64,000 nucleotides of DNA from the NCBI GenBank assembly GCA_964455555.1, contig CAYVXV010000003.1:1475-65474 (forward strand), read 5' to 3'. Of the stretch, positions 6,526-50,663 are shown piece after piece. Source of the stretch: an uncultured Pseudomonadales bacterium (lineage in GTDB: Bacteria; Patescibacteriota; Microgenomatia; UBA1400; PJMF01). Position 1 is the stretch's first letter, and each line of letters opens with the position of its first letter. The notes below the pieces were generated by a model. It saw only the letters and a program-made list of their open reading frames with translations. It was not told the DNA's origin and searched no databases. The position numbers and the translations under genes were made by a program.

Positions 6526-7653
6526 ATGAAAAAATATTTGGCATTTTTCATAATTGGAATTCTGCTCACAGTTGCAGGATTTGTTGCCGGCAGCTCACTT
6601 TCAGGTGACTCCACTACTGACTACCTGAACCCCTTAGCCTGGAAGGAAGAACCGGAAGCAGTCAAGATATACGAGCCATTCACCATTGAAAATCTGCGGA
6701 CTTACAATTTTCAGGCTCGCAGAATCGTGATTGAAAAAGAGCTGCAGGATTTCCCGAATTTTACCTCCTACCAATTCACCTTCGACCCACTGGGAAGAAA
6801 GATGACCGGCCAACTAAATATCCCAAAAGATATTGGGCCGAACCCCAAAGCAATCGTTTTAGTCAGAGGCTGGGCGCCTAGCGAAACATACTACACCGGC
6901 ATGGGGACAAAAAATGCTGCCGCTGTCTTTGCTCAGAATGGTTATATAACGATAGCCCCGGACTTCTTTGGCTATGGTGAAAGCTCACCTGAACCACCGG
7001 ATAATTGGTTGGCCAGGTTTGAAAAACCGATCGTAATTATAGAGTTAATGGAAAGCCTGAGGAAAAACGGCGCACCACTTAATATAGAGGCAACTTCCCC
7101 AGCGCAAATTGGCAACATTGGCATTTGGGCACATAGCAACGGTGGCCAAATTACTTTAACTGCCCTGGAAATTTCCGGTGAGCCGATCCCCAGCACACTT
7201 TGGGCTCCTGTTACGGCGCCGTTTCCATATTCTGTGATCTTTTTTAGCAATGAGTACGAAGACGAAGGCAAGTCCTTCCGCAAGGATGTGGCTGTGTTCG
7301 AAGAGATGTACAACGTTTTTGATTATAGTTTGACTCAACACCTAAACCTGCTTAATGCTCCGTTCCAACTCCATCATGGCCAAAGAGATGATGCTGCACC
7401 CTACTGGTGGAGTGATTCTTTCGTTGACAAGGTAAAATCAGAAAACACCAGGAGAACAAGTTTGAAAGAAGAGCTGGAAACAGCAACTAGTGAAGCTGTA
7501 CTTTCACCTGAAGTTCAAGCCGTGGCTGCTGAACAAATACTTGAGCCAATCAGGTTTAATTACTACCTTTATCCCAACGCCGACCACAATTTAGTGCCTA
7601 GCTGGAATACCGCCATACAAAGAGATTTAGAATTTTTTGCCAAAGAACTATAA
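6526..7653 (+). CDS. Alpha/beta-hydrolase (S9/dienelactone-hydrolase-like) with N-terminal signal/TM
   Basis: N-terminal hydrophobic segment. Nucleophile elbow GIWAHSNGG (A-x-S-x-G) and a C-terminal HHGQRDD acid/His region typical of the S9-type alpha/beta hydrolase fold. Confidence 0.6.
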   Translation: MKKYLAFFIIGILLTVAGFVAGSSLSGDSTTDYLNPLAWKEEPEAVKIYEPFTIENLRTYNFQARRIVIEKELQDFPNFTSYQFTFDPLGRKMTGQLNIPKDIGPNPKAIVLVRGWAPSETYYTGMGTKNAAAVFAQNGYITIAPDFFGYGESSPEPPDNWLARFEKPIVIIELMESLRKNGAPLNIEATSPAQIGNIGIWAHSNGGQITLTALEISGEPIPSTLWAPVTAPFPYSVIFFSNEYEDEGKSFRKDVAVFEEMYNVFDYSLTQHLNLLNAPFQLHHGQRDDAAPYWWSDSFVDKVKSENTRRTSLKEELETATSEAVLSPEVQAVAAEQILEPIRFNYYLYPNADHNLVPSWNTAIQRDLEFFAKEL

Positions 7654-7680
7654 GTTTATTTTCAGTTGACCTGAGTTATA

Positions 7681-8811
7681 TCACTCCTCCTCGATGACCT
7701 CCTCCGCTTCAATTTCGAGCTGTTCCTCAGATGGCAAGAGTGAGCCTGCCTGGTATGATTGAATTTTTTTAATTCTTCTATCCATTTGCCTTACTCTCGT
7801 GCCCGTGAGTTTTTCGTAGTCCGAGTGTAGCGTGGAAATTGATTTGCCGTATTTTTCAAACTGCTGCTTGAATCTGTCCCATTCACTCACAAATTCATCC
7901 ACGTAAGCTACTATTTCTTTGAGAGTGTCGCCTATTTTAAAATTGCGGAAGCTCTCCATTACTGTTCTGGCCACAATTAAAAATGAAAAAGGAGAAACCA
8001 TTATCACCCGCTTGGATAAAGCCAGGTCAATTAAGTCTGGAAACTTTTGATTTATAAATGAAAACACCATTTCATTGGGCACAAACAATATTGCATAATC
8101 AAGTGTCCCAGCCTCTGGGTTGATGTACTCTGAAACCTTGATTATTTTAATTTTCATGTCTTGTTTGAACTGCTTCATGTGAGCGTCTTTCTGGGTTCGG
8201 GAATCTGTTAATGACATCTTTTGAATCTCTTGGTACGGAAACTTCACATCCACTGCAACCTTGCGCGAGTCGGGCAACAGTAAAGAGATGTCTGGCTTAA
8301 GCTTGGTGCCCTTCAGAAATGCCTGACGGACATATTGAGTGCCTTCTATCAAACCGTTGGCCTGCAAAATGTCTTCTATGATCCGCTCACCCCACTCACC
8401 CCTGGTTTGATTGTTTGAGAGAATTCTTTCAAGCCCCTGTGTGGAGGTCTTTAAGGCCTCAGTCTGCTTATTTTGCTCTTCTATAGAAGTCCTAAGCTGG
8501 CTAAACGTTAAAGTCCTATCCTTCTCCAAATTGCGGATCTCATCCTGTTGGACTTTCATAGAATCCTGAAGCTGTTTTACCAATTTTTCAAAAATCTCCT
8601 GTTTATTGGCAAGGTCAGTCTTGATATGATCTTTCTCTCCCTGAAGAATCTGCTTGCTCTGCTCTGCCACTTTGTTGGCACTCATTCCAAAAACCTTGTC
8701 AACTATTTCCTCAATCTGAGCTTGTTTTGTCGATTGAGTTATCTGGCGCAAGGAAATTACCAGGATGACCACTGCAGAAATTAAGATCAATATTACAAGT
8801 GTTTCAAACAT
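7681..8811 (-). CDS. rmuC: DNA recombination protein RmuC
   Basis: N-terminal TM helix, long coiled-coil, then a C-terminal RmuC-type domain with an RGEWGE motif. Confidence 0.65.
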   Translation of the reverse strand: MFETLVILILISAVVILVISLRQITQSTKQAQIEEIVDKVFGMSANKVAEQSKQILQGEKDHIKTDLANKQEIFEKLVKQLQDSMKVQQDEIRNLEKDRTLTFSQLRTSIEEQNKQTEALKTSTQGLERILSNNQTRGEWGERIIEDILQANGLIEGTQYVRQAFLKGTKLKPDISLLLPDSRKVAVDVKFPYQEIQKMSLTDSRTQKDAHMKQFKQDMKIKIIKVSEYINPEAGTLDYAILFVPNEMVFSFINQKFPDLIDLALSKRVIMVSPFSFLIVARTVMESFRNFKIGDTLKEIVAYVDEFVSEWDRFKQQFEKYGKSISTLHSDYEKLTGTRVRQMDRRIKKIQSYQAGSLLPSEEQLEIEAEEVIEEE

Positions 8812-34996: not shown

Positions 34997-36337
34997 ATGA
35001 GATTTCAAATTCGAGCCTCCGCCTTGCCCGAAGCAACAACCTCGAGTATATTGGGGTCAAGTATGAAGACTGTACAAAGGCCTTCAGCCATTCAGGCTAA
35101 ACTCATCCTTGCTGTCATCTTTTCTGCCTTTTTAGTTTTGTTTCTGAGCTTTTCATCGCCTATCCAAGCTGCTGAGTGCGAGCAGTATAAATGTGACGCC
35201 GACAATCTCTCAAGTGATGAACGCTCCGTTTGTTACAATAAACAAATTGCCTGCCTACAGGGAGCAATTTCTGAGGTCAAGACACAGCAGACAACACTCA
35301 ACAGTACAATTTCCGTTTTAAACGGCGAAATTAATCTCCAACAAGTCCAGATAAATCAGTTGGTGGCTGAAATTTCCAGGCTGGAGAAGGACATCGGTGA
35401 ACTTTCAGAGAGAATTTCCGGGTTAAATGTTTCTTTAGACAGGCTCTCTACCATGCTGATTAACAGGATTAGGGCTCAGTACAAACGCGCAAATCAGAGC
35501 CCGATAGCACTATTGCTATCAGCAGACTCTTTTGGCAGTTTTATCTCGAAATATAAGTATCTAAGCACCGCCGGTGAACAAACCGCATATGCTATGACTC
35601 GGGCTGAATCGCAGCGGCTTGACTTCGATGAACAAAAAGAGCTTAAAGAGTCAAAACAAGCAGAAGTTGAAAAAAAACGGGCCGAGGTTGAAGAGCAAAA
35701 ACAATCCCTGGCAGCCAAACGCCAGGAACAGCAGTCTTTGCTGACTGCAACAAAAAATAGCGAGGCCAGGTTTCAATCAATGCTGCGGGATGCAGAGAAA
35801 GAGTTGGCTCAGATAGCAGCGGCTGCCAATATCGTCATCAGGCAGGGCAATGGCGTCCAGGTTAAAAAAGGTGAGGTTATTGGCACCATGGGCAATTCCG
35901 GCTATTCAACCGGCGCTCATTTGCACTTTGGTGTGTACAAGTACTCGGTCAGCCAGTTTCAGAACACAGGCAGCTGGGGATGGTACTACAGCAATTATGT
36001 TAACCCCCTAGACAAACTCAAATCTAAGAGCGTTACCTGGAGTACGGGCTGCGCCAACGATCCATCCGGTGTCGCTGATGCCGGTAAGGGCGATTGGGAG
36101 TGGCCAATGGGTGGAATCAGGATTACACAAAATTACGGCAGCAATACCTGTTATAACTGGCTATACGGCGGCAAACCCCATCCTGCCCTTGATATGGTGG
36201 CAATTGGGTCTAAATTTATTATGGCAGCAACTGACGGAGAAGCCTATTTCTGCCGAAACTGCCTGGGAGATGGCGGCAATGGAGTCTTTATTTTTCATGA
36301 TGACAATTATATGACCCTCTACTGGCATCTGGAATAG
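34997..36337 (+). CDS. M23-family peptidase with coiled-coil (EnvC-like murein hydrolase activator)
   Basis: Signal/TM, long coiled-coil, then an M23 LytM domain (GTMGNSGYSTGAHLHFGVYK). Confidence 0.8.
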   Translation: MRFQIRASALPEATTSSILGSSMKTVQRPSAIQAKLILAVIFSAFLVLFLSFSSPIQAAECEQYKCDADNLSSDERSVCYNKQIACLQGAISEVKTQQTTLNSTISVLNGEINLQQVQINQLVAEISRLEKDIGELSERISGLNVSLDRLSTMLINRIRAQYKRANQSPIALLLSADSFGSFISKYKYLSTAGEQTAYAMTRAESQRLDFDEQKELKESKQAEVEKKRAEVEEQKQSLAAKRQEQQSLLTATKNSEARFQSMLRDAEKELAQIAAAANIVIRQGNGVQVKKGEVIGTMGNSGYSTGAHLHFGVYKYSVSQFQNTGSWGWYYSNYVNPLDKLKSKSVTWSTGCANDPSGVADAGKGDWEWPMGGIRITQNYGSNTCYNWLYGGKPHPALDMVAIGSKFIMAATDGEAYFCRNCLGDGGNGVFIFHDDNYMTLYWHLE

Positions 36338-36493: not shown

Positions 36494-36567
36494 ACCGATA
36501 TAGCTTTATAATATTGACTACGTTTAAAACGTCTTGCCCTGCTAAATCGCAAGTAACAAGGAAACTT

Positions 36568-36915
36568 ATGAACATCAAATATCTCACCCTAACTTTATTA
36601 GCTGTCTTCGCGATGGCTTCCCAGGTACGGGTAGTGCAAGCTGCAGAGGACGACTTTACAGCAAGCCAGGAGCAGGAATGCCGCCAGATTGTCGAGACTG
36701 AATGTGAAGCCGGAGCCTATGGCCAGGTTTCAAGCTGTAAGGCAAAAGCTGAGCAAGTCTGCAAACAGAAGCAGAAAATTGTAGTTAAAGACAAGGTTTT
36801 GGGAGTAGCTCATGAACCTGTTGATACTGCTTTAGACCTGCAAGCAAGTGTTGCAACAACAATGGTTTTGGCAGCCGGAGCCGGTTCGCTTGCTTTAAAG
36901 AAAAAGCTTAAATAA
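36568..36915 (+). CDS. Hypothetical small secreted Cys-containing protein, 115 aa
   Basis: Signal peptide MNIKYLTLTLLAVFAMASQVRVVQA; Cys-containing acidic/basic middle; C-terminal hydrophobic stretch plus KKKLK tail. The ORF track start is TTG at 36514; ATG at 36568 follows AAGGA. Confidence 0.45.
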   Translation: MNIKYLTLTLLAVFAMASQVRVVQAAEDDFTASQEQECRQIVETECEAGAYGQVSSCKAKAEQVCKQKQKIVVKDKVLGVAHEPVDTALDLQASVATTMVLAAGAGSLALKKKLK

Positions 36916-37485
36916 ACTATAAAACTGTGAATTATAAAGGCTGCTTATTTCTAAGCAGCCTTTTTGATGCAAGATGCATAAACCTAATGACAATACCACA
37001 ACTTATTAGTAAATATTACCGCTTCCTACTTGATCAAATTTATTATCCTATAACATTGATTTTTGAGGTTATAAATGATATAATATTTTATAGTAATAAT
37101 TTATTTTATGCCTATAAATCCAACCAAGTCCACGCAACCCTTTTCTTGTCAGATGTTTGATTATTGGCCCAGATAATTAAACATCTGCTAAGAACGCGCT
37201 TTTTTCGCCCAATCAGCATTTACGCTGAAACCGGCGCTGAAAGCACTCCTAGCAGTTGGCAGGCTTGATTGCACTTTGGTGCGAAAAAGCCGGCTCTTTA
37301 ACAGCAAGGCAATAAAATATATAGCTCAAAAGATAAACTCCTGTTCTTCCTGAGCCATTGTTGATGTGGCAGCTACCTTGCACATAAGTTTTTGTGTGCA
37401 GCGCTGCTGTCATGTCGGCAGCCAATTCTTTCCCTGGCGCAAGCATTGGGGAAGAGTTGTCACTTTTGGTTTAGGGAGGAAATTA

Positions 37486-37808
37486 TGTCGCTAGAGGCCA
37501 TGTGGCGAGAATTTCTCGCCACTCCCATCCTGGTCTTCTTGGCTGGGATGCTGACGTGTTGGCTGCTCAATGCGCTAGTTTTGCCGGATAACCGGTCGAG
37601 CTGGCTGCATGCGCGGCGCAATGTTCCCACAGTGCTGCTGCCTCTCGGGGTTGTAGCCTTGGTCATTGCTGCCGCTGCCATTATCCTGGGCTTAGCCCAG
37701 GCAATGGTTTACATTCGCATTAACCCTGCGGTCTGGCTCTTGCTAGCAGCTGGGTTAATTATCCTGATCTTGTGGTTCGCCACAAGAAGGAGACGACCGC
37801 ATGCCTAA
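37486..37808 (+). CDS. Hypothetical small membrane protein (GC-rich island gene 1)
   Basis: GGGAGG RBS 6 nt upstream of the ATG. Two or three TM helices, RRRRPHA tail. Overlaps the start of the next gene by 8 nt (operon). GC about 60%. Confidence 0.5.
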
Positions 37809-39174
37809 GTACATCTTTGTTCTGGCAGCGCTCATCGCGCTGCTCGTCGCTGGGTGTGGCGAGCTCGTGACCGTAACTGGTCCCGAGACGTCCACCCCGG
37901 CACCGGCGGCCCCGTTAGCGCCGTCTCAGGAAGAGGCCGCTCCCGCGGTCGAAGAGCCCTCGCAAGAGAGCTCGCCGCCCCTCCGCGACAACCCCGCACC
38001 CGCGGGGAATGCGGAAGAAGCTGAAACCAAAGCAGAGGTTGTACCTGCAACCAATGCTGAGGATTCCTCGACCGCCACTCCTGTGGTGGTTGAGGCAGCT
38101 AGCGTCGCTCTCAACGACAACCCGGGCCACCGAGTAATTGTCCGTTGGAGCGACATTGATGCTGTGCTGGCGGAGACGGAGGAAGCCTCCGATGTCTTTG
38201 CGGCACTTGTCGAGGAATTCTGGCCATTTATGGTCTCGCTCAGCCCTGAGCAGATCGAAAATGGCTTAATTCTCGAGGGAGAGGGACTGCTCTTCATCGA
38301 ACTGTATTACCTCGGGCAAGAACTGCCCGAAGGTGTGCAGTGGCTTTGTGACTCCTGCCATGAATTTGGCTGGGGCCTCATCGCCATCGATGAGGGGGTC
38401 GAGTACCAGATCCCCTGGGATGAGGATGCGCCAATCGCAGGCGCGTGGTACCTCCCCATTGGCCTGGCGCTTGAACGCGTCCAGGACACATGGCTGGTAA
38501 CCACCTATGATCAGCGGGCCCTACCGCTGGTCAGCGAAGACGCCGTCCGCAGTGAACTCGGTACGCTGGCAAACACCGAGCAAGCCATCAGCCACATGAA
38601 CAACAGTTACTGGCAGTCCGCCCTCGGGTGGACTGCTAGTGATGCCGACAGCGGTTACACCGTAGTCGGCCCAGCGTTCGTGTGGACGGCCTGGCACGGA
38701 AGCCAGCCCAGCGGAGTTGTTTCCGCCTGCGCTAACTGCGTACGGCAGGACTGGGGCGTCTTCTACGTCCCAGACGGTGTCTCCTTCGAGACGCCGGACA
38801 ACAACAGCGGTGGCCGTTGGCTTCCACTGTGGGGGTCGAGCTGTCAGGGTGCTTCGCGCATCCAGCAGTTCATCTCCAGTGCCGAAACGCCGCAGGATGC
38901 CGTCGGTCGGATGCACGGGGATCTCTGGTCCCCGGTGGAAGACTATGACGGCTACAACCGCACCGAAAACTTCGTCTTTGGCGGGGTCCTAGACCTCGCT
39001 GCTGATGAAGTGGCCGTCATCTGGACCGACTGGAAGGGCGCTCCCCCCGAGGGAGCTATGCCCGCCACCAGTTCGTCCTACGACTTTGGCTACGGTGTCT
39101 TCACCGCAGCCGGGCCGTGGGAATACCGGTTCAGTGACGGAGGCGGTGGCGCCTTCGTCTTCAGCTGCGACTAA
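37801..39174 (+). CDS. Lipoprotein with Pro/Ala/Glu-rich linker and novel C-terminal repeat domain (GC-rich island gene 2)
   Basis: Lipobox LVAGC; about 80 aa PAE-rich low-complexity linker. The C-terminal about 95 aa (AETPQDAVG...TDWKG...GYGVF...GPWEY) is homologous to both repeats of the 40508 protein. Very high GC3. Confidence 0.65.
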   Translation: MPKYIFVLAALIALLVAGCGELVTVTGPETSTPAPAAPLAPSQEEAAPAVEEPSQESSPPLRDNPAPAGNAEEAETKAEVVPATNAEDSSTATPVVVEAASVALNDNPGHRVIVRWSDIDAVLAETEEASDVFAALVEEFWPFMVSLSPEQIENGLILEGEGLLFIELYYLGQELPEGVQWLCDSCHEFGWGLIAIDEGVEYQIPWDEDAPIAGAWYLPIGLALERVQDTWLVTTYDQRALPLVSEDAVRSELGTLANTEQAISHMNNSYWQSALGWTASDADSGYTVVGPAFVWTAWHGSQPSGVVSACANCVRQDWGVFYVPDGVSFETPDNNSGGRWLPLWGSSCQGASRIQQFISSAETPQDAVGRMHGDLWSPVEDYDGYNRTENFVFGGVLDLAADEVAVIWTDWKGAPPEGAMPATSSSYDFGYGVFTAAGPWEYRFSDGGGGAFVFSCD

Positions 39175-39344
39175 CCGCCAGGTTAGCCGCATGAGCTACG
39201 CTAGTAATTGCCTTGCTAGATCCCCGCCCGCACACCGCCAGGTGTTGCGAGCGGGGATGCTCTTAAGCTTCTAACTTAACTAAGTTGGCGGTTTAAGAGC
39301 ATCTCCTTTAGCCAAATAATTCCTATCTCCTGCCCAGAGATATT

Positions 39345-40277
39345 ATGAAGAAAAACAACAAACAACCACTGGTTTCGGTGCTTATCCCCGTTTATAACGG
39401 TGCTGAGTACCTGGATGAAGCCATTGCTTCAGTCCTCAATAGTACCTACAAAAACTTTGAGATTATTCTGGTGGATGACGGCAGCACAGATATTAGCCGA
39501 AAAAAATGCGCCGAATATGCCAAAAATCACGAAAACACCCGCTTCTATGCTTTCCGCAAAAATAAAGGCATGACCCGCTGCCTTAACTATGGCGTTAAGA
39601 AGGCTAAAGGCAAGTATATCGCCCGCATTAATCAGGACGACATCATGGTTAAAGACCGCCTGGAAAAACAAGTCGCCTTCCTAGAGAAAAATACCGGCTA
39701 TGTGGTGGTTGGAGGTGCTATTCAGCTCTTTACCGATAACAACCCCAAATTTGACCGCATTCAATTCCCCCTAACCGATAAGCTGATCCGTTCACAGTGG
39801 ATGATCTTCAGCCCCTACTCTGATCCGACCGTTATGTTCAGAAAAAGCGCTTGGGACAAAACTGAAGGCTATAGCCAATACTTCTGGCCTGCAGATGATG
39901 TCCATATGTGGTATCAGCTCGGCAACATCGGCAAAATGGCCAATTTACCAGGCATCCTGACCAAAGTGCGCTGGCATGATTCCTGCGGTTCAATTAAAAG
40001 CCACCGCCTGCAGATGCAAAAAACCTGGCGGGTTCATAATTGGGCAGCTGAAATGGTTCAAAAACCCAAGTTGTATGAGCGATTGTTCTGGATCGGCGAA
40101 CTGTTGGCCGGCTACCTGTTCACGCCTCAATTTAACTGGCTGGTCTACAGAACTATGCGCAAATTCCAAGCGGCTTTGTATTTGTCCCGCACCCAGTCAA
40201 AAAAGGTGCATTCTTCGCTTAGAACCCAGTTCTTACTCTTCAAAAAACAGTTTTCGCTGCTGCTTTTAGGTGCTTAA
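39345..40277 (+). CDS. Glycosyltransferase family 2
   Basis: VSVLIPVYNGAEYL...ILVDDGSTD GT-A N-terminal signature and an acidic motif further in. Composition close to the host average. Confidence 0.8.
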   Translation: MKKNNKQPLVSVLIPVYNGAEYLDEAIASVLNSTYKNFEIILVDDGSTDISRKKCAEYAKNHENTRFYAFRKNKGMTRCLNYGVKKAKGKYIARINQDDIMVKDRLEKQVAFLEKNTGYVVVGGAIQLFTDNNPKFDRIQFPLTDKLIRSQWMIFSPYSDPTVMFRKSAWDKTEGYSQYFWPADDVHMWYQLGNIGKMANLPGILTKVRWHDSCGSIKSHRLQMQKTWRVHNWAAEMVQKPKLYERLFWIGELLAGYLFTPQFNWLVYRTMRKFQAALYLSRTQSKKVHSSLRTQFLLFKKQFSLLLLGA

Positions 40278-40507
40278 TTTCCTCGAGTGTTATTGATATT
40301 TAACCCTATATATTTTATAATATAAGATAGTTTGTAGTGTAGTTTTGCAATTGCTGCAGATACTACACTGCATGCTCTTTAACAAACTAACTGAGTAATA
40401 GATCTTCCCACTGTTTACGGGTTTCCAGGACCTCTGTCCTTTGATGGAGTTTGTGGTAACCCGTAAACCCTTGCAGCCGTATGACTGCATAAGAAAAGTG
40501 AGGAAAA

Positions 40508-41266
40508 ATGAGCAAGCCAGTAAAAAAGATTTTGTTCCTGTTGGGGTTGATGATCTTGGCCTGGCTGATCCTCGTGAGAGGAGTCCTTGGCCAAGAAACT
40601 TTCCCATGGACGGACCAATTCGTCCAAAAAGTGGTCGCGGCGGAAACGCCGCAGGACGCGGTCGGGCTTGTCCTGAGCGCATTTAACGAACCTGGTTCGT
40701 CGGGGATTAATTTCTCCGGAGGCGTCACCGTCACGGTTGACGCCGAAACCTGGCTAGTTGTAGCCACGGACTGGGGAGCTGATATCCCCGCCGAGGCAGA
40801 GCCCCTCAACATCGTTGAGGACTCTGGCTACGGGGCCTGGCTCATCGCCGGGCCCTGGGAGGGGTTTATTCCCTCCGGAGTGGGTGTGAGCTTGGCAGAG
40901 GAAGTCGAAGTGGTCCCTACCACCTTTACTGTCTATCTGCCATTCATTTCCACTCCGCCAAGCCCCTGGATGAGCGCTCCGCTCGTCCAGCAGGCTTTGG
41001 CCGCTGCCAGCCCCGCTGACAGCGTGGCCTTTGTCCTGGGGGTCTTCAACGACCCCACCCGTTCCGGCGGCATTAACTTCGCCGCCAACCCCACTCTTTC
41101 CGTTGCCGCTGGCCAGGCTTACCTGGTTGCGGTGGACTGGGGTGACGCCGATCGCATCGGCGCCATTCCCGTCAACGTGACGGAGGAAGGGGCATATGGA
41201 ACCTGGGTCATCCCGGGTCCTTGGAACGGCGCAGTTCCGGGTGGAGTGGGTGTTCCACTCCACTAG
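40508..41266 (+). CDS. Secreted protein with two tandem copies of the novel about 95-aa domain (GC-rich island gene 3)
   Basis: Signal peptide MSKPVKKILFLLGLMILAWLILVRGVLG. Repeat 1 (AAETPQDAVGLVLSAFNEP...TDWGAD...GYGAWLIAGPWEG) and repeat 2 (AAASPADSVAFVLGVFNDP...VDWGDAD...AYGTWVIPGPWNG) align with each other and with the C-terminus of the 37801 protein. Confidence 0.65.
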   Translation: MSKPVKKILFLLGLMILAWLILVRGVLGQETFPWTDQFVQKVVAAETPQDAVGLVLSAFNEPGSSGINFSGGVTVTVDAETWLVVATDWGADIPAEAEPLNIVEDSGYGAWLIAGPWEGFIPSGVGVSLAEEVEVVPTTFTVYLPFISTPPSPWMSAPLVQQALAAASPADSVAFVLGVFNDPTRSGGINFAANPTLSVAAGQAYLVAVDWGDADRIGAIPVNVTEEGAYGTWVIPGPWNGAVPGGVGVPLH

Positions 41267-41284
41267 CTCAGTTAGTTTAAACTA

Positions 41285-41317
41285 CACCCCGGCCTAAAAA
41301 CCGGGGTGTTTTCATTT
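41285..41317 (+). terminator. Rho-independent terminator
   Basis: CACCCCGG-cctaaaaa-CCGGGGTG stem-loop followed by TTTTCATTT. Confidence 0.6.
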
Positions 41318-41393
41318 ATATCCTATATTATTGATTTTTACATACTATTGTGATATAATATCTTATCTTATAGTAACTATAGATAAGATTATT

Positions 41394-41627
41394 ATGAACA
41401 ACATGACACGCTTATTTAACACCGTTGTATTCGCCAGTATTGCCATTGTTGGCATTATGCTGGGAATTCAGCGAGTTGACACTTACCTTAGAAACCATGC
41501 TATCGATGGCTGTGCTCAAACCAGCCGGTATATTCACACCGAAAGCAATGGCAACACCTCAGATGTTTTTGAGGAACCAAGCCAAGGTGTTTATCAAAAA
41601 TGCTTAGACTTGAAAAATATTGACTAA
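41394..41627 (+). CDS. Hypothetical small membrane/secreted protein, 77 aa
   Basis: ATG at 41394 (MNNMTRL...), one TM/signal helix. No motif. Confidence 0.3.
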   Translation: MNNMTRLFNTVVFASIAIVGIMLGIQRVDTYLRNHAIDGCAQTSRYIHTESNGNTSDVFEEPSQGVYQKCLDLKNID

Positions 41628-41672: not shown

Positions 41673-44600
41673 TTATATCCTTCCTAGGAGGCTGCGCCTT
41701 ACTTTTCTCATTCTATTTCTTTTATAAGGACTGCGGATAATCGGTTTTCTTGACTTTGAATAAACTATTGTAGCCAACAACGAAAGCCCTGAAATAAACC
41801 AGCCAGCTATGGCCAGCCTCTCCGGCAGATAGAAAGCATAAAAAACAACAGGCTCTTCGTCAGAGATTTCTTGTCCTGAAACAATCCAGCCATTGCTCCA
41901 ACCATTCACTTTGACGTGCTGACCGGCAACTAACCCCCGACCCCAGAGGACATTTAAAATATTATCAGTCTTATAAAGCCGCCACTGAGTGTCATAAGCC
42001 TGCCCGAAGGCTAAGAGCATCTCTCCATCACTTGGCTGATCCCGTTCTACGCTAAACTGCCACAAAGAAGGCAGAATTTTCCTGATGTGAGTTATCTGGC
42101 CTGAGGCAAAATTCAGCCTGCTTTCTCCATTTTCCAAATAGGTGTTCTGCCAGTCTGAAGGCAGGGCAATTACATTATTACTGGCAAATTCCACCAACGC
42201 TTGATTGGCAACGGTGTGATGAACCTCGAAGTATTCCTTGCTGCCGGTTTGAATCGGCCCCTGAGAAATCAGCATCCGCTGCCCTCTTATTAATTGGCGG
42301 TTTTCAAGTGCATCCTGCACCATTTGGTCATAAAATCCCTCTGTCCTAAACAGCAGTGGGTCAGCTTTTTGCAGGCTTTTAAAACCAGGTAGGTTGGGAT
42401 AACCGTCTAAATAAGAAACATACTCATTGACTAACTGATATGGCTCGCTGGCAATAAATTGAGGCTGCCCGCCGGTATAAACATGATAATCTGTGGTCCA
42501 GAGATAAAATGCCTGAGAAATATAGGGCAAGCTAACGAAAATGCTTTGATAGCAGTCGCTTAAGTATGAAAGCAACCCGCCGTGTATTGAGGACTTTATC
42601 ATTCTAATAGAGCTGTCTCTGTGGTCGCCAACAGCCAAGCTGCAAACACCCCTTTCTCTCGGTTCCAAAGCATCCAAATTGGGGTTCATATAAAATGATG
42701 AAGGTGAAAACACTGGAGCAAACCTTATTGAATTGGTTTGATCAGCCAGGGTGTCAAAGGTTTCAGCAGTTTCAGAATAATATGCAGATATAGATGCCTC
42801 ATATTTTGGCTGGTATTCATGAACCATCAACTTAGTGACATCCAACTCATGCGTGCTGTTTTCTATTGTCGGTAGTATGAGGATGGTCTGTAGAACATTT
42901 CCTGAAAAGGTTTTTTCTGAAGTTACCCTGACATTCTGCAGCGGCCTATTGCCATTGAGCGAAAGCCTGCTGTTCAAACAATCTCCATCAACATCGTTCT
43001 TTATGCAAATTCCAAAAGATTGGTAATTTGGCAAACTGTTTACCACCCTCTCGATGGCTTTCTGAGTCTGAGAAGGAGTAAAGGATTGATCCAGATCAGC
43101 TTTGCCAAAACTATTCTGAGTTGCACTGACTTCGACTTCTACATACCTAGCAGCATCCGGAATTACAATTGTTTTAGCAATACAGGCTGATCCTTTTTCG
43201 GTTGTAAGGCTCAAGCGGTTTGGATTGACAGTCAGTTGAGGGTTATAACCCTCTGTAGCATCCAAAAGGCAGTTGGAGTCATCGGTAAGCCTAAAGGCAG
43301 GAGGAGTAATGGATATTAGGTCACTGCTCTTCTCAAGCAAGGCCACATTTGTAATACCCGGATTTACCAGAACCGAGCCCAGGAATTGGGGGTTGCTTAG
43401 AAATCCTGCCGGCAGCGGCAAAATTGTCTCTCCTATTTGGAGCCTGTAGGGTGACAATTGCTTATTCCCCAACATGTGCCAATTAGCCAACACCTGGTTG
43501 TAGGTAATATTTTCAGCCTCCAGATCGTCAAACTCAGCCGCGGAAATCTCCAGAGAAAATAAAAGCACCTCGTCCGACAAGGATTGGCCTATTACCGGTT
43601 TTGCCAAAGTTCCAAAAATATCCAAGCCGTCTACTCTCGGCCGGGAGTAAATGCTTACAGCAAAAGGGCTGTTTGCGCGCCGTTCTTGGCCGTAGGATAT
43701 CTTGTCAAACTCAGTTCCGGAATTTTCAAAAACTGCAGTTATTTCCTCATCTCCAAACGAGTACTTCGTTAAAGGATTGTGAAACGGATAAGTCCGGTAG
43801 GGATAAGCAGTTGTCTGAATAACAGTTCCTTGGCTGGTAAATAGTGGTTTAATAAAAGCGTTTGCAAATGTCGGATCCAAATTAATTGCGGAGTCAACAA
43901 CCTCAACTGCGTCAACGGTATTTTTTACTTCATAGAGCACCAAATTTGGATTGGCCGCAACTTGCTCATCAATCTTGGAGATATTTACTCCATATACCCG
44001 TGCATGCCTGGACAGGTTAATGGTTTCCGTTTGTATTATCTCTAAGTCTTCTTGATCAACCAGGGTATCCAGCATCTGCTTAACCTCAACCTGCTGAATA
44101 TATTCCCAAGTTCTTACATCCTTGGCAGCGATATTGCTGTCCACCGACTCATCAAAAAGTACATATTTGACACCAGCTCTCCTCAGTAGCTCGCCAAGCC
44201 ATTTTGCCCTGGAATTAATCTCAGCCTCATCGACTGCATAAGCATTCTGAAAAACGCTGTTTAGGGCAAAGTCAAAAAAGTCGTTGTCCTGGTTCGCAGG
44301 AGAAAAGGTTTTATCTAATAGCGGTTTATTAAGAATGAAATTAAAGAAGGATGAGCCGTAATATCCCCACTTGTATGACCGCCAATAACTAAACTGACCA
44401 ACAGGCAAGTGCAATACCCTTGCGTAGCTGTGGTCATTGTTGATAGTTGTGGCTACTGAATAGTATTCTTGAGGAAAACTCACTCTCAAGAGTGAAAACA
44501 GCATTGAACCTTTAAGCGGGAAATAAGCCATCCATCCCAACCAAACTATCAGCACAATTAAGCTAACAGACTTGGCTAAAAGAATTGCGCCCTTGGGAGC

Positions 44601-45911
44601 GGCTTGTAGATATCTATCCCTGAACCATTTAACGGACTGCAATAGAACATAAACTCCAGCTCCAACCATAACTGCAAAGGCTATCAGCAGCAGTGGATTT
44701 AGTTTGGTAGTACCAAAACGAAGCACTAATTTTAATGGAGGTATTTTCTCACCCAACAGATCATAGATATAGCCGAAGGGTGGATACTCTTTTCTAAGCA
44801 AAAACATGCTACCGGCAGCCAAAACAACCGGCCAGAGCGCCTCAAACTTTCTTTGCAACAATCTCCTAATCAGATAAAGAAAACCTAAGCCAACAAAGGG
44901 TAAGGGCAAAAAGAAATACCAAGCAACTTGTTTGCCTATATGAGTATATTCCAGGGACTCGTGAACTTTCACCGGCTCCCCTGTTGAAATTGAAGTAAAT
45001 GGCAGGCCAGAGGCAAACTCAGAAGAAAAAGTCAGCAGTTTATCCCAGCTAAAGCGCTCTGCGAACTGATTGAATAAATACTCATTCACCAGAGCAAAAG
45101 TAGAAGACTGCGTAATGGTTCCGGCTTTATGGTTGGTGTAATTTACAAACGGCAGCAACCAAAATAGATTAAGCATAAAAAATAGCAAAAAAATTGAGGC
45201 AAAGCGTTTGAGCCTGTGCGGATAACTAAACAACAATGTGAAAAAAAGTATAACCAGAGTAAAAAAGACTGTGGCGGTTAAATAAGACGGAGCACCTAAA
45301 AAGACAACAAGAGAAAATAAAATCAAATGCCGCCGTTCCCAATGGCGGTTGTCAAGTAGCTTAAGAAATAACAACAAAATTACAGGAAAAAAGGCAAATC
45401 TAACCAAATACATAACAATCGGTAGATAAAATACATCGACTGTGTATAGGCTAAAAGTATAGAAAAGTGCACCTGCTAGGGAGGCTGCCTGCAAGAGCTG
45501 GTTATTTTGCCTTGACGATGCCGACAGCTGCTCTAAAACCTCCTTAACCAGCAGAAAAGCAGCCGCGCCCCCGGTTACATATAGTGCCAAATAATAAACC
45601 TGGTCTACTAATCGAATCGGCAGTAGCAGATCCAAAGGCAATAAGATTATCTGCCGGAAAATATCTACAACTTCTGAATCACTAGGGACACCAAAGCCGC
45701 GGTAATCCCTCCAGGTGGCAAAGAGTGTCCGGAAAAAGTTGTCTTTCAAACTTAATGAAACACTGAAATTGTCCCAGCCCAAGATCGCTGTATCAATTTT
45801 AAGACTAATGATGCTAATGACAGACAGGAGAAACAAAAGAGTTATCAGTCCCCACCAATCAGCAACTGTTTTTTTAACCATTTGCTTAAACTGAGTAGAA
45901 TTTAATTGCAT
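41673..45911 (-). CDS. Giant polytopic membrane protein (1412 aa), possible GT-C/AftD-like glycosyltransferase
   Basis: About 12 TM helices in the first 470 aa, a roughly 900-aa hydrophilic (probably extracytoplasmic) region, and a C-terminal TM helix. Overall architecture is like the AftD/YfhO class of GT-C enzymes. The ORF track start is GTG; ATG at 45911 (MQLNSTQF) is used here. Confidence 0.6.
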   Translation of the reverse strand: MQLNSTQFKQMVKKTVADWWGLITLLFLLSVISIISLKIDTAILGWDNFSVSLSLKDNFFRTLFATWRDYRGFGVPSDSEVVDIFRQIILLPLDLLLPIRLVDQVYYLALYVTGGAAAFLLVKEVLEQLSASSRQNNQLLQAASLAGALFYTFSLYTVDVFYLPIVMYLVRFAFFPVILLLFLKLLDNRHWERRHLILFSLVVFLGAPSYLTATVFFTLVILFFTLLFSYPHRLKRFASIFLLFFMLNLFWLLPFVNYTNHKAGTITQSSTFALVNEYLFNQFAERFSWDKLLTFSSEFASGLPFTSISTGEPVKVHESLEYTHIGKQVAWYFFLPLPFVGLGFLYLIRRLLQRKFEALWPVVLAAGSMFLLRKEYPPFGYIYDLLGEKIPPLKLVLRFGTTKLNPLLLIAFAVMVGAGVYVLLQSVKWFRDRYLQAAPKGAILLAKSVSLIVLIVWLGWMAYFPLKGSMLFSLLRVSFPQEYYSVATTINNDHSYARVLHLPVGQFSYWRSYKWGYYGSSFFNFILNKPLLDKTFSPANQDNDFFDFALNSVFQNAYAVDEAEINSRAKWLGELLRRAGVKYVLFDESVDSNIAAKDVRTWEYIQQVEVKQMLDTLVDQEDLEIIQTETINLSRHARVYGVNISKIDEQVAANPNLVLYEVKNTVDAVEVVDSAINLDPTFANAFIKPLFTSQGTVIQTTAYPYRTYPFHNPLTKYSFGDEEITAVFENSGTEFDKISYGQERRANSPFAVSIYSRPRVDGLDIFGTLAKPVIGQSLSDEVLLFSLEISAAEFDDLEAENITYNQVLANWHMLGNKQLSPYRLQIGETILPLPAGFLSNPQFLGSVLVNPGITNVALLEKSSDLISITPPAFRLTDDSNCLLDATEGYNPQLTVNPNRLSLTTEKGSACIAKTIVIPDAARYVEVEVSATQNSFGKADLDQSFTPSQTQKAIERVVNSLPNYQSFGICIKNDVDGDCLNSRLSLNGNRPLQNVRVTSEKTFSGNVLQTILILPTIENSTHELDVTKLMVHEYQPKYEASISAYYSETAETFDTLADQTNSIRFAPVFSPSSFYMNPNLDALEPRERGVCSLAVGDHRDSSIRMIKSSIHGGLLSYLSDCYQSIFVSLPYISQAFYLWTTDYHVYTGGQPQFIASEPYQLVNEYVSYLDGYPNLPGFKSLQKADPLLFRTEGFYDQMVQDALENRQLIRGQRMLISQGPIQTGSKEYFEVHHTVANQALVEFASNNVIALPSDWQNTYLENGESRLNFASGQITHIRKILPSLWQFSVERDQPSDGEMLLAFGQAYDTQWRLYKTDNILNVLWGRGLVAGQHVKVNGWSNGWIVSGQEISDEEPVVFYAFYLPERLAIAGWFISGLSLLATIVYSKSRKPIIRSPYKRNRMRKVRRSLLGRI

Positions 45912-46002
45912 CGAACGCACATGCCAATTATACGTTAATTTTTCTCAAGTAAGCAAGTTAGAGGCTGATTAAATGCAAGAAAGATGAATTATCATCACGG
46001 CC

Positions 46003-49637: not shown

Positions 49638-50663
49638 ATGCCAAAAAGCAAACAGTTAAACCCTTCAGCTGTCATCCAAGTCAAAAACCTTAGGAAGCAT
49701 TTTAAAGTCTATCATAAGGAGCCGGGGCTATCAGGGTCAATAAAATCACTTTGGAGCCGAAAATACGAGACTGTAAAGGCCGTTGATGATATCAGTTTTG
49801 AGATCAAGCAAGGGGAAATGGTTGGATTTATCGGTCAAAACGGCGCCGGAAAAACCACAACACTAAAAGTGCTCTCCGGCTTGCTATACCCCACCGATGG
49901 CCAAGTTCGGGTCCTGGGGTACAATCCTTGGGATCGAAAACCGGAGTTCCAGAAGCAGTTTGCTTTGGTGATGGGCCAAAAAAATCAACTTTGGTGGGAT
50001 TTGCCTGCCATGGAAACATTCTTGCTGAATAAGGCTATCTATGAGATTCCGGAAAAACAGTTTGACGAGACCCTCAACCGCCTTGTAGACTTACTGGATA
50101 TCCGGAAGATTATGCATGTCCAGGTCCGCAAGCTTTCCCTCGGACAACGCATGAAAGCTGAACTTGTGGCTGCACTGCTGCATAACCCCAAAGTGCTTTT
50201 CCTTGACGAACCCACCATCGGACTGGACGTGGTTATGCAAAAAACTCTCCGTGATTTCATTAAGAAATACAACGAAGAGTTTGGGGCCACAATTATTCTG
50301 ACAAGCCACTACATGGATGATGTTAAAGAGCTGTGCGAACGCGCCATTATTATCGACAACGGCCATAAGATTTTTGACGGCAAACTGCAAAATATAATCG
50401 ATAAATACGCTAGGAATAAAATCTTATCGCTCGTTTTCAGCCAAGAAATCAGCGAGAAAGACCTCACTCCCTACGGAGAAATTAAAGAGTTAGACCAAGA
50501 CGGATCAGCTTATACAGCCACCCTATTGGTACCCAGAAAATCCGCCACCTCACAAGCCGGCAAAATCTTGAACAAACTGCCCGTCCAAGACCTGAATATC
50601 GAAGAACCGCCTATAGAAGCAATTATCCGCGAGGTTTTCGGCGATACCAACAAATCCCGCTAG
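49638..50663 (+). CDS. ABC transporter ATP-binding protein (COG4586-like, with C-terminal extension)
   Basis: Walker A GQNGAGKTT, signature LSLGQRMK, Walker B LFLDEPTIGLD, followed by an extra about 100 aa C-terminal domain. The ORF track start is GTG at 49620; ATG at 49638 is used here. Confidence 0.85.
   Translation: MPKSKQLNPSAVIQVKNLRKHFKVYHKEPGLSGSIKSLWSRKYETVKAVDDISFEIKQGEMVGFIGQNGAGKTTTLKVLSGLLYPTDGQVRVLGYNPWDRKPEFQKQFALVMGQKNQLWWDLPAMETFLLNKAIYEIPEKQFDETLNRLVDLLDIRKIMHVQVRKLSLGQRMKAELVAALLHNPKVLFLDEPTIGLDVVMQKTLRDFIKKYNEEFGATIILTSHYMDDVKELCERAIIIDNGHKIFDGKLQNIIDKYARNKILSLVFSQEISEKDLTPYGEIKELDQDGSAYTATLLVPRKSATSQAGKILNKLPVQDLNIEEPPIEAIIREVFGDTNKSR

Follow-up and report, generated by a model that had tools for sequence, protein, structure and literature searches.

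A previously undescribed ~100-residue domain repeated in predicted exported proteins of a patescibacterial gene cluster and shared with a phage tail-tip protein

What is the two-repeat protein encoded by a block rich in guanine plus cytosine (GC) within a 64,000-nucleotide stretch of patescibacterial DNA, and what could such a protein do at the cell surface? The stretch (contig CAYVXV010000003.1 of assembly GCA_964455555.1, positions 1,475 to 65,474 of the forward strand), hereafter the window, has a content that fits Patescibacteria: DUF4012, a lamin-tail-domain (LTD) protein, FtsEX together with an M23 peptidase, a ribosomal-protein/SecY operon and a single tRNA. Patescibacteria (the candidate phyla radiation, CPR) account for a large part of the diversity of bacteria; they live attached to other cells, and nearly all of them are uncultured. 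To our knowledge their attachment molecules and phage receptors are largely uncharacterised, and a search of the literature on the surface proteins of Patescibacteria and the receptors of their phages found nothing of relevance. The first-pass annotation of the window had marked a GC-rich block at 40400-41320, said to encode a secreted protein with two tandem copies of a novel domain. The block is evident, with a GC fraction of 0.60-0.66 over 40600-41300 against 43.6% for the window as a whole, and a further stretch at 37400-39300 reaches 0.55-0.68. The gene within the block has the following features, given, like all coordinates of the window below, from its first letter:

40508 to 41266, + strand: 252-amino-acid (aa) exported protein (p252), with a signal peptide or signal anchor at residues 1-28, then two domain repeats
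40601 to 40894, + strand: repeat 1 of p252 (residues 32-129), modelled by AlphaFold2 as two helices and seven strands
40961 to 41263, + strand: repeat 2 of p252 (residues 152-252)

The N-terminus of p252, MSKPVKKILFLLGLMILAWLILVRGVLG followed by QE, has three lysines, a 17-residue hydrophobic core and V-L-G preceding the likely cleavage site. Sec-exported proteins typically begin with a basic n-region, continue with 15-20 residues of hydrophobic core and have small residues at positions -3 and -1; p252 correspondingly shows K3, K6 and K7, then ILFLLGLMILAWLILV, then V-L-G before Q, and its only hydrophobic segment covers residues 3-29. By these sequence features p252 is an exported protein, either through a cleaved signal peptide or as an uncleaved anchor. 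The tandem repeats described by the first-pass annotation are clear, since repeats 1 and 2 have 45% identity across 99 aa (E 5e-26 in a pairwise blastp comparison). Inspection of both repeats also found each of the four motif blocks quoted there twice, as AAETPQDAVG/AAASPADSVA, INFSGG/INFAAN, TDWGAD/VDWGDA and GYGAWLIAGPWEG/AYGTWVIPGPWNG. The mature protein has a mass of about 24 kDa and is acidic and poor in lysine, as is the 457-aa lipoprotein discussed next. An antisense open reading frame (ORF) of 169 aa lies inside the p252 gene (40754-41263, - strand) and more of them lie inside the lipoprotein gene; these are shadow ORFs expected of GC-rich sequence, not genes.

The same domain had been reported at the C-terminus of a lipoprotein encoded 1.3 kb upstream, in agreement with the 1.33 kb that we measure between the two genes. 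The lipoprotein and its modules are laid out as follows:

37801 to 39174, + strand: 457-aa lipoprotein (p457), with lipobox LVAG-C19, a Pro/Ala/Ser/Glu-rich linker at residues ~25-100, then three modules
38122 to 38496, + strand: module A of p457 (residues 108-232), a divergent copy with the Cys pair LCDSC, linked to module B by hhalign
38497 to 38835, + strand: module B of p457 (residues 233-345), a divergent copy with the Cys pair ACANC, linked to module C by hhalign
38836 to 39171, + strand: module C of p457 (residues 346-457), a clear domain copy with flanking conserved Cys (SSC at one end, FSCD at the other)

Judged by inspection, the N-terminus of p457, MPKYIFVLAALIALLVAG-C19, has the positive n-region, the hydrophobic h-region and the terminal lipobox L-[AS]-[GA]-C of bacterial lipoproteins, and the lipobox is kept as LLAVG-C in the orthologue of a relative (L002) and as MLSA-C in the family member P0015. 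The C-terminal part of p457 (residues ~346-452) matches the p252 repeats by blastp with E 9e-8 and scores 29 bits against a hidden Markov model (HMM) of six repeat copies. Module C is likewise aligned with the p252 repeats by hhalign (probability 95%, E 3e-8), so that the domain does end the lipoprotein. All three segments align well above chance, taking E>0.01 as chance level. The earlier count of three copies in two proteins stands as far as the clear copies are concerned and probably falls short of the total. Using module profiles in which p457 was aligned with its syntenic L002 orthologue (408 aa, 31-32% identity), hhalign related module A to module B (probability 97.7%, E 2e-12) and module B to module C (E 2e-4, in full-length register). 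Each module consists of a short helical segment and then a beta-rich stretch ending in G-G-x-W/F-hydrophobic, and the domain HMM gives weak in-register matches to the B-type modules of other lipoprotein-type members (P0013, P0014). A structure prediction for p457 from four sequences displays the helix-then-strands pattern three times, but at a predicted local distance difference test (pLDDT) score of 48.8 it is unusable as evidence for three modules. Because homology is transitive from A through B and C to the p252 repeats, p457 probably holds three domain copies and the window probably five in total, two in p252 and three in p457.

The fold of the domain was predicted with AlphaFold2 for repeat 1 of p252, using a seven-copy alignment, and the model reached a mean pLDDT of 94.4 and a predicted template modelling score of 0.86, with 88 of its 98 residues at 90 or above. 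It consists of helices at residues 6-13 and 17-28 and then seven strands, in agreement with the earlier expectation of a probably beta-rich domain, which holds in the sense of mostly beta; the A-x-T/S-P-x-D-A-V motif falls in the two-helix part. Over 21 copies the conserved core comprises TP-x-x-AV in helix 2, NF, hhh-T-D-W-G, P-x-G-x-x-P, G-G-Y-G-x-W, G-P-W and G-x-G, and D57, G76, Y77, G78 and G93 are invariant or nearly so. The C-terminal copies of lipoprotein type have an extra conserved Cys at both ends (S-x-C and S-C-D/N), and C-x(2-3)-C pairs are present in modules A and B and in the copies of P0007, which suggests disulfides, consistent with an extracytoplasmic location.

The claim that the domain is novel was borne out by every library searched. 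In Pfam-A 2025 the best match of p252 had an E of 0.048 and 14 bits (cut-off 25) and p457 had none; profile searches of NCBIfam 20 and PHROGs v4 left the domain unmatched, and the domain profile found nothing better than E 1.1 among all PDB sequences. When ten homologues were run against Pfam only LamG in P0010 was recognised, and the 21 domain copies had no consistent weak Pfam match common to them. A fold search against the PDB was without significant neighbour. Its closest known counterparts are the receptor-binding 'head' domains of siphophage tail tips and carbohydrate-binding beta-sandwich modules (as in the receptor-binding protein head of lactococcal phage Tuc2009, PDB 5e7f), together with double-stranded beta-helix, jelly-roll, cupin and TNF-like sandwiches. 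Matches to folds resembling carbohydrate-binding modules (CBMs) were not significant and Pfam gave no CBM or lectin match, so neither homology nor fold places the domain in a known lectin or CBM family. At the level of sequence, then, the domain is a previously undescribed family of ~100 residues, and its predicted fold is one for which comparison with PDB structures found no known neighbour.

This family is exceedingly rare: among ~15 billion public proteins, fewer than 20 are known to carry the domain. A word-indexed search of 5.8 billion clusters, a method weakly sensitive for this family, retrieved three proteins, p252 and two orthologues (75% and 68% identity), and with p457 as query it returned p457 itself only. 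Running hmmsearch with the domain profile exhaustively through 1.84 billion representatives (clustered at 50% identity) gave 14 matches at E<=1e-3, about 11 of them genuine; P0011, P0012 and P0016, highly repetitive and with partial profile coverage, were judged spurious. Repeating the word-indexed search with the 21-copy alignment added P0019 as its sole new protein. Pattern scans with the p252 alignment over 185,579 GTDB species genomes, IMG/VR and JGI metagenomes yielded no confirmed relatives, and neither a scan of IMG/VR with P0010 nor a search of GenBank phages produced further ones. The sole named member is annotated 'MAG: hypothetical protein [Patescibacteria group bacterium]'. Exported members carry the domain in three (P0005), two (P0007) or one copy (P0009), P0008 is an anchored member of 545 aa, P0013, P0014 and P0015 are of the lipoprotein type with B and C modules, and P0010 is a member without signal peptide. 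N-terminal hydrophobic signals were seen in P0005, P0007, P0008, P0009, P0013 and P0019, while P0015 has its lipobox. A further protein, P0006 (294 aa, on a Logan contig of 1,062 nt), has two copies, no recognisable signal peptide and ~60 N-terminal residues that differ from the N-termini of cellular members, and may represent another version of the domain carried by a phage.

The strongest functional hint comes from P0010, which matches the domain profile over positions 12-100 with an E of 3e-6 across the whole library. It is encoded on a 36-kb contig with a siphophage-type tail gene order: tail terminator, tape measure (PhageMin_Tail, PHROG E 3e-100), Dit (E 9e-16), Tal-like minor tail protein (E 1e-11), P0010 and further tail proteins. 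P0010 itself is built of a ~60-residue N-terminal segment, the domain at residues 61-159 and a Laminin_G_3/ConA-like domain at residues 188-339. Such a slot among the tail genes and such a LamG-type partner are typical of receptor- or carbohydrate-binding tail-tip proteins of siphophages, and by analogy this context suggests a recognition role for the domain. Sharing between a phage tail tip and cellular proteins could also mean that the cellular copies are phage-derived receptor-binding modules kept as a defence, masking the receptor, excluding superinfection or acting as decoys. One carrier, p457, is a lipoprotein like several known exclusion proteins (Llp of T5, Ltp of TP-J34), and the composition of the genes is atypical. 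Such an origin is nonetheless highly improbable, considering that the genes are chromosomal, syntenic and outside prophages, that PHROGs holds no match, and that the phage copy has ordinary phage composition while the cellular copies are GC-rich, which does not indicate a recent phage origin.

If the domain serves recognition, the genes around it suggest what might be recognised. The neighbours are:

37485 to 37808, + strand: small membrane protein (~107 aa, ATG at 37485) with three transmembrane (TM) helices, kept upstream of lipoprotein-type members (L002, L013)
39345 to 40277, + strand: glycosyltransferase of family 2 (GT2; PF00535, EpsE/TuaG-like), a conserved neighbour of the family
41394 to 41627, + strand: small N-terminally anchored protein with two cysteines (2-Cys protein; 77 aa from M22 of the listed ORF)
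41673 to 45920, - strand: 1,415-aa polytopic membrane protein (the giant), with ~10 N-terminal TM helices, an external region of ~900 aa and a C-terminal TM helix

The end of the gene for the 3-TM protein overlaps the start of p457, suggesting translational coupling. In close relatives the whole order is syntenic: RF2, FtsE, FtsX, M23, a small Cys-rich anchored protein, the 3-TM protein, the lipoprotein, GT2, the two-repeat protein, the 2-Cys protein, the convergent giant and the LTD protein. The reported co-localisation with GT2 holds well beyond the window, as GT2 and a convergent giant stand beside cellular members in five independent contexts (the window, L007, L010, L013 and L014). P0005 (L007), P0007 (L010), P0015 (L013) and P0013 (L014) are each one or two genes from GT2 and from a convergent gene for 1,349-1,399 aa, in loci whose wider context differs. 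Over these distant loci the GT2s are ~70% identical and the giants align end to end at 30-34% identity. Giant orthologues (1,350-1,416 aa) occur in L001, L007, L010, L013 and L014; invariant Trp and Cys are abundant in their external part, and the acidic residues D50, D81, E83 and D86, directly after TM1, are invariant. Searches with the giant, also as a six-sequence profile, against Pfam, NCBIfam and PDB sequences gave no match; its topology and the acidic residues after TM1 resemble those of GT-C enzymes, and by analogy it may be an undescribed GT-C-like enzyme.

Three small or variable neighbours deserve mention in their own right. The 2-Cys protein (…DGCA…C…, two invariant Cys, ~75-90 aa) travels with the cluster, with 77 aa in L002 (10884-11117), 74 aa in L007 (8580-8804) and 90 aa in L014 (9248-9520); its gene is directly upstream of GT2 in distant relatives and follows the two-repeat gene in the window. 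A small secreted Cys-rich protein (96-133 aa, C-x-x-G-[AS]-Y-G-[QE]) encoded at 36514-36915 is conserved in L002 (6245-6598), L007 (6612-6962), L013 (5029-5394) and L014 (5060-5350), is unmatched in Pfam and NCBIfam, and ends like a sorting signal, with H-[EVP]-P-V-D-T-A, a hydrophobic helix and a basic tail. The M23 peptidase (34997-36337; L002 4878-6098) has a long coiled-coil N-terminal half, 48% identity and extra segments in its catalytic region, and is more variable than FtsE and FtsX.

Taking the phage copy and the neighbourhood together, the reading we prefer, and hold tentatively, is that the ligand of the domain is a glycan or glycoconjugate of the envelope, in whose synthesis GT2 and the giant take part, and that the phage attaches through the same module. 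In this scheme p252 and p457 would be exported, membrane-tethered envelope proteins with two and (probably) three tandem domains, produced from a conserved envelope cluster made up of the 3-TM protein, the lipoprotein, GT2, the two-repeat protein, the 2-Cys protein and the convergent giant. The adjoining GT2 and giant would help to build the glycan ligand, the tandem domains, held at the surface of the membrane, would bind this polymer or organise it, and the phage tail tip would employ the module, next to its LamG lectin-type domain, for recognition of the cell surface. What the analysis establishes is descriptive: the repeats and their homology, a very rare family, a confidently predicted fold without known neighbour, export signals, a conserved neighbourhood, the copy in a phage, an anomalous composition and a leader common to both units. 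That the domain binds a ligand, that this ligand is a glycan and that GT2 and the giant are functionally linked to it we infer.

Two known systems offer partial parallels. The cell-wall-binding modules of monoderm bacteria (SLH, CWB2, GW, LysM and choline-binding repeats) are similarly exported or tethered, come as one to three tandem modules of 50-100 aa, have envelope glycopolymer synthesis genes nearby and recur in phage proteins. Unlike them, the p252 domain matches no such family in Pfam and has no PDB fold neighbour, and its binding is putative. The second parallel, no more than a lead, is the gene set for O-mannosylation of lipoglycoproteins in Actinobacteria, where the GT2 enzyme Ppm1 and the GT-C enzyme Pmt act on lipoproteins with Pro/Thr-rich linkers. 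The window likewise combines a GT2, a large polytopic protein and a lipoprotein with a Pro/Ala/Ser/Thr-rich linker, and the acidic loop after TM1 of the giant (GWDNFS) resembles that set. The window GT2, however, resembles EpsE/TuaG-type enzymes and not polyprenol-phosphate sugar synthases such as Ppm1, and the giant, unlike Pmt, matches no GT-C or PMT family; glycosylation is here a putative activity.

Several points weigh against a glycan-binding role. The conserved Trp, Tyr and Gly could merely form a hydrophobic core; the novelty of the fold rests on the PDB, and a match to some predicted structure is possible; the giant is not assignable to GT-C or any other family; P0009 (L012) is without GT2 and giant neighbours; GT2 and the giant may be a core pair of the clade, in which case their adjacency could reflect inherited synteny; and the P0010 phage is not tied to any host.

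The same exported, tethered, tandem-repeat architecture would also suit adhesins that hold the host cell of this episymbiotic bacterium, their ligand being foreign and not a part of the bacterium itself, and a family confined to Patescibacteria-type genomes is what such a function would lead one to expect. The adjacency to the GT2 and giant genes of the cell itself fits a self ligand better, however, and so does the phage copy, which should recognise the surface of the phage's own host. We consider host adhesion distinctly unlikely, a judgement to which the rates of evolution given below also contribute on both sides.

The transcription signals of the two genes are listed here with the leaders found in relatives:

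37044 to 37091, + strand: promoter-like site of the lipoprotein operon, coinciding with copy 1 of a 48-bp direct repeat (TTGATT-17-TATAAT with TG; site at 37056-37084)
37092 to 37484, + strand: leader of the lipoprotein operon (~390 nt), with a hairpin and then invariant GCTCTTTAACA at 37293-37303
40293 to 40321, + strand: p252 promoter-like site, near-consensus TTGATA-17-TATAAT (11/12)
40325 to 40507, + strand: p252 leader (~185 nt), with a hairpin, GCTCTTTAACA (40374-40384), a long helix at 40413-40468 and a helix sequestering the Shine-Dalgarno sequence
41284 to 41309, + strand: intrinsic-terminator-like hairpin ending the p252 unit (9 bp, 7 of them GC, then a T run)
41319 to 41366, + strand: promoter-like site of the 2-Cys protein gene, coinciding with copy 2 of the 48-bp direct repeat
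Other leaders with the motif: L001 72-257; L002 6868-6990 and 9806-10003; L007 7263-7385 and 9793-10003; L013 7456-7578

The p252 leader folds with -68.3 kcal/mol, at a z of -7.4 relative to shuffled controls, and its 3' helix pairs with the Shine-Dalgarno region. It is conserved in L001 and L002 and partly in L007, and compensatory changes occur in 11 of 46 predicted pairs, which over four sequences is suggestive of a conserved structure. Rfam 15 contained no match at the gathering threshold, and a permissive search gave eukaryotic snoRNA and miRNA noise (E 0.04-0.4) with scores well short of the gathering cut-offs. The motif GCTCYTTAACA is found upstream of both family units in L002, upstream of both genes for GC-rich secreted proteins in L007, and in L013 and L001, and each of the eight leaders has a stable hairpin, variable in sequence, whose end lies 0-3 nt ahead of GCUCYUUAACA. 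Since both units of the window have this hairpin and motif, p457 and p252 are probably co-regulated, and the hairpin with GCUC(U/C)UUAACA is a candidate for a new cis-regulatory element. The motif was not adopted as a -35 box, its spacing to -10-like hexamers being inconsistent among leaders. A third GCTCTTTAACA copy at 50321 (- strand) is intragenic and probably there by chance (expected count 0.1). One of the L007 leaders precedes a 251-aa secreted protein (7610-8365) with a GC content at third codon positions (GC3) of 0.65, compared with 0.23-0.39 in its neighbours, and with two internal repeats of its own (E 2e-7), which are unrelated to the p252 domain; we rejected it as a cryptic family member, as it has no detectable similarity to the domain.

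A self-contained p252 gene, with near-consensus promoter, long stable leader and strong terminator, is also what one would look for in an abundant structural envelope protein, such leaders being known from highly expressed surface-layer (S-layer) genes. On this account p252 and p457 would be S-layer-like or coat proteins, perhaps substrates of glycosylation by GT2 and the giant, and the domain would be a self-assembling scaffold rather than a ligand-binding module. The acidic, Lys-poor character of the proteins agrees with it, as do the Pro/Thr/Ser/Ala-rich linkers (residues 25-100 of p457; TPTVTITPTTAPTATPTPP in P0005), of a type that is O-glycosylated in other bacteria. Typical S-layer subunits are, however, larger than mature p252, and a scaffold role leaves the phage tail-tip copy beside LamG unexplained. 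A coat function is in our view unlikely, the more so given the codon usage described next.

The GC3 of p252 (0.69) and p457 (0.70) lies 5.4-5.6 standard deviations above the mean of the other 46 window ORFs of at least 150 aa (0.43, standard deviation 0.05). The domain genes have a GC3 of 0.58-0.76 in every cellular genome examined, with far lower values in their neighbours (0.58 against 0.23-0.31 in L007, 0.72 against 0.46 in L010), and the phage copy, at 0.36, has the composition of its phage. Expression-linked codon bias was rejected as the cause because the genes for ribosomal proteins, HU and L7/L12 have a low GC3, which in most genomes lies at 0.29-0.48; L001 departs from this, with 0.58 for HU against 0.76 for the domain gene. 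The codon usage of the domain genes is thus opposite to that of ribosomal-protein genes (GC3 0.29-0.44, compared with 0.69 for p252) and lends no support to the high-expression bias that abundant coat proteins would show.

Rates of change differ among the genes. Between the window and L002, protein identity is 63-73% for core genes, 68% for p252, 32% for p457, 29% for the giant and 94% for GT2. The idea that p252 is a fast-evolving protein was rejected, its value being that of the core background; only p457 and the giant are fast. The rapid divergence of p457 (32% against ~70% in the core) is as expected of exposed proteins, whether coat proteins or host adhesins, and the average rate of p252 speaks against adhesion to a host. 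At four-fold degenerate sites of conserved codons, core genes are 0.27-0.43 identical, near saturation, compared with 0.68 for GT2 (window against L002 8826-9758), 0.56 for p252 against L002, 0.61 for p252 against L001 and 0.36 for the giant against L001. The excess silent-site identity of the GT2-p252 block implies either exchange between lineages more recent than the divergence of their genomes or selection on silent sites, and in the case of GT2 the pattern suggests lateral exchange or an unusually strong constraint. Exchange of a host-interaction cassette would suit the adhesin reading as well.

These data bear on whether the two GC-rich blocks are foreign-looking cassettes, as the first-pass annotation had called them. 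In the strongest form, they would be recent insertions from a GC-rich donor, for instance an actinobacterium, with no special relation to the biology of the recipient. The compositional part of the claim stands, given a GC3 more than 5 standard deviations above the window mean that expression bias does not explain, and so does the excess silent-site similarity of GT2 and p252 over core genes. The 48-bp direct repeat, found nowhere else in the window, also brackets the whole 4.3-kb GC-rich segment, as an insertion scar would. The foreign part of the claim was overstated. Examined as a genomic island, the locus has deviant composition but no mobility genes, with no integrase or transposase found near the GC-rich genes, and it is syntenic in all relatives found, occupying the same slot where neighbouring proteins are ~30-70% identical. 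The GC excess is family-wide, appearing in every cellular genome whatever its background GC, and no donor outside this bacterial group was found among the 1.84 billion representatives, which contain no homologue beyond the small set described, the genome, IMG/VR, JGI and GenBank phage scans being empty too. Both 48-bp copies, moreover, are extended -10 promoter-like sites (TTGATT-17-TGATATAAT), and L002 shows the same pattern, so that the repeats coincide with promoters conserved there; we tentatively read the repeat as a common promoter type rather than an insertion scar. Recent insertion from a distant donor is accordingly very unlikely.

The preferred reading, recognition of an envelope glycan, can be extended to a more far-reaching one. 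Here a recognition domain with a new fold would stand on both sides of the interface between Patescibacteria and their phages (or hosts), carried in an exchangeable surface cassette that stays GC-rich in whichever genome it is found, recombines between lineages and is controlled by its own undescribed structured leader RNA, with the hairpin, GCUCYUUAACA and the helix that sequesters the Shine-Dalgarno sequence. We regard this extension as doubtful, although, if true, it would provide a first handle on the way in which ultra-small episymbionts construct and diversify the surface that serves them for recognition, and on the targets of their phages.

As a family the domain is new and yet ordinary in kind, a lineage-specific tandem-repeat surface protein of which unannotated examples are common in Patescibacteria, and if it were only structural filler it would be one more lineage-specific domain of unknown function among the many in these genomes. 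What takes it beyond a routine unknown domain is the combination of a homologue in a phage tail tip, a fixed partnership with GT2 and the giant, and a family-wide GC-rich codon usage together with a structured leader. The codon usage and the common leader may be signs that surface genes are exchanged laterally and have a regulation of their own, and the domain itself is a candidate envelope-recognition module of Patescibacteria that can be put to the test.

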